DNA from: a marine bacterium B5-7
GTDB lineage: Bacteria; Pseudomonadota; Gammaproteobacteria; BQJM01
Assembly (NCBI GenBank): GCA_021604705.1
Contig: BQJM01000001.1
Span: 72,887 to 136,886 of the forward strand
Length of the DNA: 64,000 nucleotides
Direction of reading: 5' to 3'
Shown here: positions 41,184 to 42,937 of the stretch, piece by piece
How positions within the stretch are numbered: position 1 is the first letter of the stretch
How the letters are laid out: every line of letters starts with the position of its first letter
Program-made: the position numbers and the translations under genes
The notes under the pieces: generated by a model
The model's input: the letters and a program-made list of their open reading frames with translations, nothing else
What the model was told of the DNA's origin: nothing
Databases searched by the model: none

Positions 41184-41329
41184 CGTGGTTTTCACAAGAA
41201 TTACATGATTTTCATGAAAAGTTGTAAAATGTGTGCTATATTCCTCACTAGGGCTTGTTAATACACGATTTTCATGAGATATGGATAAAAATACACGGAT
41301 TTCACAGATTGTACGCGTTTTTCATGGCG
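41184..41329 (+). promoter_or_regulatory. five direct repeats of ACRYGRTTTTCAYRA upstream of, and running into, the Fic gene start
   Basis: Copies at 41184, 41204, 41264, 41293 and 41313. A TATATT box lies at 41237..41242. Confidence 0.5.
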
Positions 41330-42828
41330 ATTATCTGCCAGAGCAGGATGTGCTGTTGGTGGGGTATTCTGCAATAATTTTCTTTTTTGATATCAAAACA
41401 CCCTTCCCAGATCAGCTTGCTGCGCTTAGTCACAAGCATCGGCAATATACCCAGGGCCGGTGGTCTATGTATACACCGCGCCACAAGCCAGATCTCAGTT
41501 TATTTGGGCATCTGAAATTTGCGCTTCGCTATGAGGGTATTGATCTTTTAGTGCTAAAAAAGCTCTTTCTACAAATAGACGGGCAATGGCTTGTTGATGA
41601 GTTGATGGCAGAGCCGCGGAGTGCTTACGTGCGGCGTCTTTGGTTTTTATATGAATGGTTATTAGAAGAAGAATTACCGATAGCAAATGTCAGTGATGGT
41701 AACTTTGTGGACGTGCTGGATACCAAATTACAATTTGCAGGCCCCAGTCGTTCATCAAAGCGTCATCGCATTCGAAATAATTTGCCAGGTGTTCCTGGAT
41801 TTTGCCCGCTTATTCGGAAAACAGAAAAACTACAGCAAGCTGTCGATCAAGATTTTCACCAACAATCACAATCATTATTAGGTGCCGTACATCCAGATAT
41901 GTTGCGTCGAGCGGCTGCATTTATGTTGCTGAAAGATACTAAAGCATCTTTTGCCATTGAGGGTGAATCACTTTCCCGTAACCGTAGTGAACGTTGGACA
42001 AATATCATTGCGCAAGCTGGTGTGCATCCATTGTCTTACGATGAGATAGTGCGTTTGCAGCTTGCCTTAATCGAAGATCCGCGTTTTACACAAATCGGTT
42101 ATCGAGAAGAGGGTGGATTTATCGGGGAGCATGATCGCATCACTGGTCATCCGATTCCTGATCACATCTCTGCAAAGTGGCAAGATGTGGTTCCGTTGAT
42201 GGATGCGTTGATAGAAACAGAAAAATTACTTAAAGATAGTGATATCGATGCTGTAATCGCTGCGACGGTGATAGCATTTGGTTTTGTGTTTATTCATCCT
42301 TTGGAAGATGGTAATGGCCGTATTCATCGTTATCTGATTCATCATGAGTTGATACAAAAACAATTTGGTATGCCTGGTGTTGTCTTTCCTGTTTCTTCAG
42401 TGATGTTTGATCGTATTTTAAAATACCGAGAAACCTTAGAACATTTTTCTAAACCGCGCTTACCAATGTTCCAGTGGCGGGGGACTGAAGCAGGCAATGT
42501 TGAGGTGCTGAATGAAACAGCTGACTTCTATCGTTACTTTGATGCAACGCATCAAGCTGAATTTCTGTATGATTGTATTCAAGAAACGATTGAAACCACA
42601 TTGCCAGAAGAAATAGATTATCTTGCTAAATATGATCGTATGAAACAATACATTACGCAATACATTGATATGCCAGATCGCTTGGTTGATTTACTCATTC
42701 GTTTTCTACGTCAATCGCAAGGTAAGTTGTCCAAACGTGCGAGAAGAAAAGAGTTTTATGCGCTAACGGACGATGAGGTTGGTAGGATTGAAGGTCAGTA
42801 CGCGGAGATTTTTCAGCAAGAGGATTAG
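41281..42828 (+). CDS. Fic-family protein (class II, internal inhibitory helix), AMPylase-type motif
   Basis: Fic motif HPLEDGNGRIHR (HxFx[D/E]GNGRxxR). Inhibitory motif SFAIEGE ([S/T]xxxE[G/N]) about 120 aa upstream. 515 aa with a ~200 aa N-terminal extension. Confidence 0.8.
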   Translation: MDKNTRISQIVRVFHGDYLPEQDVLLVGYSAIIFFFDIKTPFPDQLAALSHKHRQYTQGRWSMYTPRHKPDLSLFGHLKFALRYEGIDLLVLKKLFLQIDGQWLVDELMAEPRSAYVRRLWFLYEWLLEEELPIANVSDGNFVDVLDTKLQFAGPSRSSKRHRIRNNLPGVPGFCPLIRKTEKLQQAVDQDFHQQSQSLLGAVHPDMLRRAAAFMLLKDTKASFAIEGESLSRNRSERWTNIIAQAGVHPLSYDEIVRLQLALIEDPRFTQIGYREEGGFIGEHDRITGHPIPDHISAKWQDVVPLMDALIETEKLLKDSDIDAVIAATVIAFGFVFIHPLEDGNGRIHRYLIHHELIQKQFGMPGVVFPVSSVMFDRILKYRETLEHFSKPRLPMFQWRGTEAGNVEVLNETADFYRYFDATHQAEFLYDCIQETIETTLPEEIDYLAKYDRMKQYITQYIDMPDRLVDLLIRFLRQSQGKLSKRARRKEFYALTDDEVGRIEGQYAEIFQQED

Positions 42829-42864
42829 TTTTCCTATTATCTTATTTAGATTATAAAATAACGG

Positions 42865-42937
42865 AGCTGGTGATAGGATTCGAACCTACGACCAACTGAT
42901 TACAAATCAGTCGCTCTACCAACTGAGCTACACCAGC
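42865..42937 (-). tRNA. tRNA-Thr (anticodon UGU)
   Basis: Hand-folded cloverleaf: acceptor GCTGGTG/CACCAGC, D-arm GCTC-AGTTGGTA-GAGC, anticodon stem ACTGA/TCAGT with loop TTTGTAA, T-arm GTAGG-TTCGAAT-CCTAT. Confidence 0.75.

Follow-up and report, generated by a model that had tools for sequence, protein, structure and literature searches.

What is the role of five short direct repeats that precede a fic gene and run into its coding sequence (CDS)? The question arises from a stretch of 64,000 nucleotides (hereafter, the window) of contig BQJM01000001.1 (assembly GCA_021604705.1, positions 72,887 to 136,886 of the forward strand). Its source is the metagenome-assembled genome of an unclassified gammaproteobacterium, "marine bacterium B5-7", and the Fic and GlnS proteins that the window encodes are 100% identical to the records of that genome. 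The fic gene (41281..42828, + strand) codes for 515 residues and, from the open reading frame (ORF) list, Pfam, the homologs and the PDC-S24 profile, belongs to a family of class II Fic proteins of about 515 residues. The initial annotation had regarded the repeats as iteron-like and the gene as an insert at a tRNA gene, possibly coding for a secreted effector. The data reported below point to another answer: judging from the sequences, and with a probability of about 0.55, the array would be an operator, complete in itself, through which the Fic protein binds and regulates its own gene.

The pattern ACRYGRTTTTCAYRA is found without mismatches at 41183, 41203 and 41263 and with two mismatches each at 41293 and 41313, always on the + strand. 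The repeats of the window span 41181-41327, with start-to-start distances of 20, 60, 30 and 20 nt, and codons 5-16 contain the last two. Site 1 (ATACGTGGTTTTCACAA, 41181..41197, +; exact, 8.6 bits) lies 14 nt past the glnS stop codon and has its core TTTTCAC at -92 relative to the ATG. The core of site 2 (TTACATGATTTTCATGA, 41201..41217, +; exact, 11.8 bits) is at -72; this site corresponds to S2 of the six positions (S1 to S6) that the array occupies in the family, and its 3' end overlaps a -35-like hexamer. Site 3 (ATACACGATTTTCATGA, 41261..41277, +; exact, 13.1 bits), with the core at -12, is the family S4 and overlaps the ribosome-binding region before the ATG. The remaining two sites are coding: site 4 (ATACACGGATTTCACAG, 41291..41307, +; core at +18, 12.9 bits) covers codons 4-9 (N T R I S Q) and is the family S5, and site 5 (GTACGCGTTTTTCATGG, 41311..41327, +; core at +38, 17.6 bits) covers codons 11-16 (V R V F H G) and is the family S6. 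All bit scores (8.6-17.6) come from a weight matrix trained on the homologous loci of other organisms, with the window left out.

Over the remainder of the window, 128 kb with both strands counted, the same matrix retrieved 22 matches. The Poisson probability of at least five matches in a single-strand window of 150 nt is about 9e-11, or about 8e-8 once corrected for all windows, and 1000 shuffles of the array segment gave at most one match. These values confirm the initial claim that five repeats stand before fic and reach into its CDS; the repeats resemble protein-binding sites.

The same array accompanies the gene in other organisms. Eighty homologous loci were fetched from metagenomes and their start codons assigned, and the site statistics were computed on the 73 loci whose proteins are 52-61% identical. 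The motif of the window recurs on the strand of the gene 5' of most of them, and an iterative weight matrix yielded a 16-nt consensus, TAAyCrwWWTTCAYR, with modal cores at -96, -67, -47, -11, +18 and +38 with respect to the ATG; from four to six sites are present in 61 of the 73 loci. The array holds 25.4 sites per kb, an excess of about 340-fold over the background; its reverse strand holds 0.85, and the other 416 kb of these loci hold 0.07. In all, 329 sites are forward and 11 reverse, the latter at about the background level, and the repeats are all direct. The distances between successive sites are almost quantised, at 20 nt (109 times), 29 nt (55) or 30 nt (28), and the six sites form two triplets (29 nt, then 20 nt) offset by 85 bp, whose members pair up by subtype (class-matrix correlation of 0.87 between S1 and S4 and of 0.78 between S3 and S6).

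The motif, with its invariant TAA...TTCA and its fixed spacing, is shared by Gammaproteobacteria, Alphaproteobacteria, Bacteroidota, Balneolota-like bacteria, Verrucomicrobiota, KSB1 and Margulisiibacteriota. It is also found on plasmids of cultured organisms with high-GC backbones, namely Agrobacterium tumefaciens pLN1 (NZ_CP092895.1, 41560-41760; sites at -103, -74, -54, -25, +24 and +44) and those of Phaeobacter and Adhaeribacter (-88, -58 and -38 in the latter), and the upstream region holding the array is AT-rich even in replicons with 58-59% GC. Some lineages have variants that are common to all the copies of their array: TAC in the window, GAAC in the Phaeobacter locus L170 (instead of TAAT) and TTTTTAT in the locus L104. 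In the window, the consensus reads TAC-RYG-R-TTTTCAY, and all five sites have TAC where the family has TAA (A in 93% and C in 3% of the cases).

A sigma-70-type promoter is predicted to be embedded in the array between S2 and S3. In the family, a conserved -35 hexamer T[AG]GACA comes right after S2, S3 fills the 17-nt spacer, and a CATAAT -10 hexamer follows, for which the subgroup nearest to the window has TATAAT. Since these hexamers keep a constant distance from S2 and S3, S1-S3 should lie in promoter DNA that is probably not transcribed. In the window, the promoter scan and the comparison with the homologs converge on a predicted sigma-70-like promoter at 41214..41242 (+), ATGAAA-17-TATATT with a TG extended -10; the TATATT (41237-41242, that is, -44..-39) coincides in position with the TATAAT found in the closest homologs, and transcription from this promoter would be expected to begin about 7 nt past 41242. 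The closest homologs (loci L171 and L172, 60% identity) have their cores at -101, -72, -52, -12, +18 and +38, to be compared with -92, -72, -12, +18 and +38 in the window. Thus, the window keeps S2 and S4-S6, its S1 is shifted by 9 nt and placed tight against the glnS stop codon, and the site in the promoter spacer, S3, is degenerate or lost.

The segment 41176-41216, which includes sites 1 and 2, is 71% identical over 41 nt to the segment of the coding sites, 41286-41326. These data are a hint that the array grew by tandem duplication, which fits the two equivalent groups of sites observed throughout the family. It can also be observed that 41176-41216, read in the matching frame, gives K-D-T-W-F-S-Q-E-L-H-D-F-H-E, a peptide resembling the N-terminus of Fic.

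Within the CDS, the nucleotides themselves are under constraint. Codon usage was evaluated in 76 homologs, the expectation being taken from the remainder of each gene. The Ser of the +18 site is encoded by TCA in 68 out of 69 cases (17.6 expected), the Val preceding the conserved Phe by GTT in 43 out of 43 (18.6 expected), and the Phe itself by TTT in 75 out of 76 (55 expected); the codon three positions before the Phe ends in TA (GTA, ATA or TTA) in 56 out of 76 sequences, 18 being expected. At some positions of the coding sites the amino acid varies (N/F/I; V/I/S/A/T) and the bases of the motif are constant; moreover, the reading frame differs between the two coding sites. Since the bases are fixed while the residues vary, and the frames differ, it is a DNA or RNA motif that shapes the N-terminal peptide and not the reverse. 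Consistent with this, a distantly related Pantoea protein (31% identity) begins at a GY(S/A)AL motif and lacks the first ~25 residues, yet direct repeats of the CGTTTTCG type are present upstream of its gene; the array principle may extend past the close family. The distant subfamily to which this protein belongs (27-31% identity) aligns without the first ~25-70 residues and occurs on 112 Pseudomonas and 23 Pantoea plasmids, two examples being a P. anthophila plasmid (NZ_CP110474.1, locus L169) and P. aeruginosa pBM908 (locus L168).

The protein encoded downstream of the array is conserved end to end over all of its 515 residues, with thousands of homologs at 54-62% identity over 96-100% of the length, in Gammaproteobacteria, Micavibrio, Verrucomicrobiota, KSB1, Margulisiibacteriota and Balneolota-like bacteria. 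The N-terminal region of about 200 residues had been described as having no obvious homolog, which turned out to be wrong: residues 1-200 alone retrieved 1268 representatives of 50%-identity clusters, in which the matching region is always N-terminal. The N-termini of the homologs align from Met1 (consensus MxxNNxFSxxVSVFH or MxxYNQNSxxxTVFHGF), and the annotated start of fic, on which a doubt had been raised, is therefore correct. The PDC-S24 profile of PADLOC aligns with residues 26-513 (model positions 6-491 of 497; E = 7.6e-189), and the score against the SoFic equivalog NF046030 of NCBIfam is 24.5 bits, below its cutoff of 550. The family is present on 248 plasmid records, the close plasmid relatives being from Rhizobiales, roseobacters and Bacteroidota. 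A phage origin was considered and rejected: no homologs were retrieved from 50,697 phage records, and the PHROGs search gave only generic matches to the Fic core. No description of PDC-S24, of repeats 5' of Fic genes or of the array described here was found in the searchable literature.

By its sequence, the protein is a canonical class II Fic, with an alpha-inh motif (S/T)xxxE(G/N) N-terminal to the Fic core, according to the definition applied to CbFic2 and CccR (PMC10628234, PMC9755527). Pfam Fic (PF02661) matches residues 251-355 (E = 7.8e-10, 39.9 bits against a cutoff of 24). The catalytic motif HPLEDGNGRIHR (residues 339-350; 42295-42330, +), recognized from the sequence, has L where HxFx(D/E)GNGRxxR has F, the residue found in 85% of the family; across 68 homologs, no variation occurs at H339, D343, G344, N345, G346, R347 and R350. 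The chain also carries, N-terminal to this motif, the inhibitory-helix motif SFAIEG(E) (residues 223-228, or 229 with the last E; 41947-41964, or 41967; +), whose S223, located 111 residues before H339, and E227 are invariant in the same 68 sequences. The class II assignment made by the initial annotation is supported, and the Fic motif and the S..EG of alpha-inh are both invariant in the family.

The AlphaFold2 model of the full-length protein is confident, with a predicted local distance difference test (pLDDT) score of 89.9, and its top structural matches are CbFic2 (8CIL) and SoFic (3EQX); the Fic-domain structure 7XUX is also among the fold matches. The family-specific N-terminal domain (residues 1-200; 41281..41880, +) is modeled as an alpha/beta part and a four-helix segment with a basic SKRHRIRNN stretch, and might represent a DNA-binding module. 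Modeled alone, it has a pLDDT of 91.6 and weak fold matches, the top two of which are the AbiEi-type regulators 1ZEL (Rv2827c) and 6Y8Q; neither Pfam nor the PDB gave a sequence match for it. The C-terminus of the AlphaFold2 model is a three-helix bundle (residues 466-478, 485-490 and 497-512). In a 382-column Foldseek alignment this bundle is located like the winged helix-turn-helix (wHTH) of CbFic2; it has no wing and no Pfam HTH match.

If the Fic protein is the ligand of the array, the following mechanism can be depicted. Binding would be cooperative, on 16-nt sites in the same orientation that extend over ~150 bp from upstream of the -35 hexamer to codon 16; the spacing of 20 and 29-30 nt would place these sites roughly on one face of the helix. 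Once bound, Fic would occlude the embedded sigma-70 promoter, the ribosome-binding site and the early coding DNA, and this self-repression would keep a potentially toxic AMP-transferase, auto-inhibited through Glu227 of alpha-inh, at a low and self-limited level. We infer that the ligand is Fic, that its binding represses, and that the protein has a DNA-contacting domain; the candidate parts are the N-terminal domain, the invariant basic SKRHRxRNN (residues 159-167) and the C-terminal three-helix bundle, which takes the position of the wHTH in CbFic2/SoFic. Fic is the most economical ligand because it is the only constant companion of the array, the motif and its spacing being kept across phyla without common specific regulators. 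Furthermore, variants shared by all the copies of a lineage fit a co-inherited ligand better than a host factor. As a cellular role, toxin-like growth control and phage defence are both candidates.

Several observations weigh against this reading. A scan for covariation between residues and bases found no recognition element, and neither Pfam nor the PDB revealed a DNA-binding domain in Fic by sequence. The similarity of the N-terminal domain to AbiEi/Rv2827c is weak (E = 0.23 and 0.96, template modeling (TM) scores of 0.30-0.37), and the third and last helix of the C-terminal bundle appears acidic by inspection of the sequence, which is atypical of a recognition helix. Within-locus concerted evolution was not significant across the family (identity of 0.679 vs. 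0.670, 146 out of 2000 permutations). The enrichment matrix was trained on the same array regions in which the enrichment was measured and is, in this respect, circular, a concern limited by the size of the effect and by the test that left the window out. Lastly, the predicted transcription of three out of six sites and the strict strand bias also fit an element acting at the RNA level. As for the unique segment EPRSAYVRR of the window protein (EPTGxYSRR in the family), it was considered as a recognition element and discarded: its coincidence with TAC is a single case, and the other variant lineages do not deviate there.

Such an RNA-level element is the main alternative, although an unlikely one in our estimate. 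Sense repeats in the leader, in the ribosome-binding site and in the first 16 codons would bind an RNA-binding factor, possibly Fic itself, and control translation or mRNA stability. The near-absolute strand bias, the location of S4-S6 in the predicted mRNA, with S4 overlapping the ribosome-binding site and start region, and the retention of the motif in two different reading frames would all be accounted for. However, S1-S3 are upstream of or within the conserved -35/-10 region, and the 20- and 29-30-nt spacings fit the helical phasing of duplex DNA; moreover, the repeats have no complementary segments, the leader of the window folds no better than shuffled sequences (z = 0.37), and the Rfam scan, which did match the tRNA, gave no match bearing on the array. 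To much the same degree, we consider it improbable that the ligand is a factor encoded by the host, either a nucleoid-associated protein or a conserved regulator of AT-rich T-tracts (acting in xenogeneic silencing or as a global on-signal). The AT-rich sites in an AT-rich upstream region, kept even in GC-rich replicons, and the fact that no DNA-binding domain is proven in Fic speak in its favor. On the other hand, such a factor is hard to reconcile with the phylogenetic breadth of one motif with a fixed spacing in seven host groups, which are not known to share silencers such as H-NS; the lineage variants common to all the copies fit a co-inherited ligand better, and no regulator gene is linked to the array. 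Among known motifs, compared by inspection, the DnaA box differs by at least three to four mismatches, CRP and LexA sites are discarded by the absence of a dyad in the array, and UP elements and H-NS would leave the invariant TTCA and the in-CDS sites unexplained.

A slightly less probable variant has Fic as the ligand and the array as a DNA scaffold, over whose two three-site units, 85 bp apart, the protein would assemble into an inactive (or de-AMPylating) oligomer. A single gene with its own 5' DNA would then be a self-contained sensor-effector: phage-induced DNA damage or degradation, a change in supercoiling, or dilution after gene loss could strip the protein from the array, and this would both derepress its synthesis and release active AMP-transferase. 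The result would be a defence or addiction behavior without a partner gene, and the first ~25 codons would be mainly a translated operator. Distinctly improbable is the reading from which the analysis started, that is, a horizontal islet at a tRNA integration site that codes for an effector delivered by a type IV secretion system (T4SS) and carries locus-specific iterons or regulator sites. In fact, the window does contain a VirB-type T4SS operon 31 kb away, fic is accessory, since the three nearest relatives found have no such gene next to glnS and it also occurs on plasmids, and a WipA phosphatase domain of the Legionella type is encoded on the contig of a close homolog (P0015). Nevertheless, the locus has no integrase or rep gene, the end of the tRNA is not directly repeated there, the GC content is like that of the neighbors, and a tRNA gene lies near only 4 out of 80 homologous loci. 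As to the effector, the Pfam scan detects only the Fic domain, with no BID, ankyrin or other effector-type domain; the family is widespread in free-living phyla and matches the profile of a defence candidate, and the distant secretion operon is what supports this claim. Likewise, the term iteron-like does not apply, given that there is no rep gene or origin context and that the array follows fic, with unrelated neighbors, in chromosomes and plasmids; the repeats are family-wide and not locus-specific. The least probable possibility, to which we give very little credit, is that the repeats have no function and are remnants of small duplications at the start of the gene or merely follow from the coding of the conserved N-terminal peptide. 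The duplicated segments described above, with the peptide read from the upstream copy, could be explained in this way, but position, spacing and orientation are kept among loci with 52-61% identical proteins and unrelated flanks, the codon skew runs from DNA to protein, and upstream TTTTCG repeats persist in the distant subfamily, which lacks the first 25 residues.

Coming back to an operator bound by Fic, the closest precedent is CccR of Yersinia pseudotuberculosis, a class II Fic with a C-terminal HTH; it is a toxin that also represses its own promoter by binding to sites that overlap the -35/-10 (PMC9755527). As in CccR, the window protein has the alpha-inh motif and the Fic core in a single polypeptide; CccR, however, is 380 residues long with a DUF4172-type N-terminal region, to which the 200-residue N-terminal domain of the window protein is unrelated. 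The operator of CccR consists of two inverted 10-bp repeats that are 26 bp apart and bound by a dimer (PMC9755527), whereas here the putative operator consists of 5-6 direct repeats with 20/29-nt spacing, which cover ~150 bp and enter the CDS; a palindromic operator of the CccR type was not found, the sites of the window and of the family being all direct repeats. CbFic2 of Coxiella burnetii (CBU_0822, 8CIL; E = 7e-8, TM-to-target of 0.66) and SoFic of Shewanella (3EQX; E = 2e-7, 0.55) are class II Fic proteins as well, but they share only 14-18% sequence identity with the window protein and lack its N-terminal domain. CbFic2 binds DNA via its C-terminal wHTH and this binding switches its activity; it was assayed with random-sequence DNA only, and the authors leave the specific site open (PMC10628234). 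According to a statement in PMC11514479, which cites earlier work, SoFic-type genes are validated anti-phage genes.

A repeat array is described neither for CbFic2 nor for SoFic. PDC-S24, a single-gene "phage defence candidate" of PADLOC-DB, is the same protein family as that of the window according to the full-length profile match; nonetheless, PDC entries are unvalidated candidates derived from genomic association, and the gene of the window and its closest homologs sit among housekeeping genes, with no evident defence island. An AbiEi protein is an autorepressor of the wHTH type whose toxin partner is a nucleotidyl-transferase, and a functional analogy with AbiEi/Rv2827c (6Y8Q, 1ZEL) can be proposed, in which an N-terminal regulator would be joined to the Fic nucleotidyl-transferase; the fold matches are weak, and the AbiEi Pfam models do not match the N-terminal domain even at E <= 10. 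Moreover, AbiEi is a separate protein with inverted-repeat operators, while the system of the window would have a fused domain and direct repeats. Iterons (bound by Rep) and parC (bound by ParR) consist of same-orientation sites with helical-repeat spacing that flank or overlap a promoter, are bound cooperatively and mediate autoregulation; here, in contrast, there is no rep or par gene, nothing suggests an origin function, and the array enters the CDS of the gene that it would regulate.

Regarding the history of the locus, fic is the sole gene between glnS (glutamine-tRNA ligase; 39509..41167, +) and tRNA-Thr (TGT; 42863-42937, -), as initially annotated, the other ORFs in this interval being short and spurious. 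The glnS product is the annotated protein P0271 (552 residues, 100% identity), and the start at 39509 is implied by this public annotation, the listed ORF beginning at 39401. The tRNA gene is convergent with fic, with its 3' end 34 nt from the fic stop codon, and is followed by crcB, a thiamine pyrophosphate (TPP) riboswitch and the thiamine (thi) genes; the riboswitch (43401-43504, +; RF00059, 61.5 bits) precedes the thiamine block starting at 43489. A tRNA-targeted genomic island is not supported: no ORF for an integrase was found at the locus, no direct repeat of the tRNA end within 41100-43000, and no anomaly in base composition between fic and its flanks. Plasmid iterons are not supported either, there being no rep gene between or beside glnS and tRNA-Thr. 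In the homologs, the distance within which only four loci have a tRNA gene is 600 nt.

A comparison of the glnS-tRNA-Thr synteny with relatives lacking fic had been proposed. A scan for glnS in 185k species genomes retrieved only loci at most 60% identical, from many phyla, and none of them had fic, crcB or tRNA-Thr nearby. In a large protein set the nearest GlnS proteins are 66-69% identical, and the downstream genes differ each time; fic is absent beside glnS in the three closest relatives found. None of the nearest glnS relatives having fic there, the gene is not conserved at this position and is accessory; at such a level of identity the comparison is not decisive, and as no informative empty site exists, the insertion event is neither datable nor provable. 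A fic gene conserved at the same position and devoid of repeats was not observed, since the relatives lack fic there and the repeats are a hallmark of the family.

No conserved neighbor gene emerged from the homologous loci: when the 198 ORFs flanking fic at 78 loci were grouped by homology, the largest group had three members, and the orientation of the neighbors is random. The annotated contexts include arsenic-resistance genes, repABC, arn genes, a Mu-type transposase and purine genes. The neighbors in the window (glnS, tRNA, crcB, thi) and those of the closest homologs are housekeeping genes, and one homolog lies near HTH_17 and PIN/VapC-like genes. In the Phaeobacter sp. G2 plasmid CP104102.1 (locus L170), fic is beside a Mu-type transposase/TniB pair and is followed by genes for an AAA-ATPase and a helicase, a context that we interpret as Tn7-like cargo with a Gabija-like pair. 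In the contig of the homolog P0008 (locus L172), the purine genes 5' of fic are split into small ORFs (SAICAR_synt and AIRS fragments), which suggests that this organism, which harbors one of the closest Fic relatives, has a decaying, host-associated genome.

Elsewhere in the window, the complete-looking VirB-type T4SS operon extends over 2792-10173 on the - strand and codes for a VirB11-like ATPase (2792-3742), TrbL/VirB6 (3732-4820), TrbI/VirB10 (4817-6028), CagX/VirB9 (6025-7023), VirB8 (6980-7714) and VirB4 (7687-10173), all on that strand. Between this operon and the housekeeping genes lie a GH18 chitinase-like gene (10662-12113, -) and one for an FRG-domain protein (14656-15801, -). Four large ORFs without a Pfam match are located 5' of glnS (31559-33445, +; 33457-34818, 34835-37174 and 37619-39175, -) and could code for lineage-specific membrane or effector-like proteins. 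Of these, 34835-37174 and 37619-39175 appear by eye to be paralogs, with common GPWTN... and ...ALAAD.RS..RK.LG segments. A 779-residue ORF upstream of glnS contains a long acidic low-complexity (D/A)n run.

Fic AMP-transferases are widespread and potentially toxic, and their regulation in bacteria is mostly unknown. The analysis corrects the annotation-level view of this locus, which is not an orphan-domain effector island, and provides the PDC-S24 Fic family, whose thousands of members span many phyla and are also carried by plasmids of rhizobia and roseobacters, with a concrete and testable regulatory element. The general principle of self-regulating Fic or toxin-like enzymes has a precedent; the phased array that invades the CDS is the new element. 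If Fic does bind the array, this would be, after CccR, the second and architecturally different Fic acting as its own transcription factor, and would illustrate clearly how an operator can shape the first codons of the protein that it regulates; it would also offer an experimental handle for the signal that switches these enzymes on.

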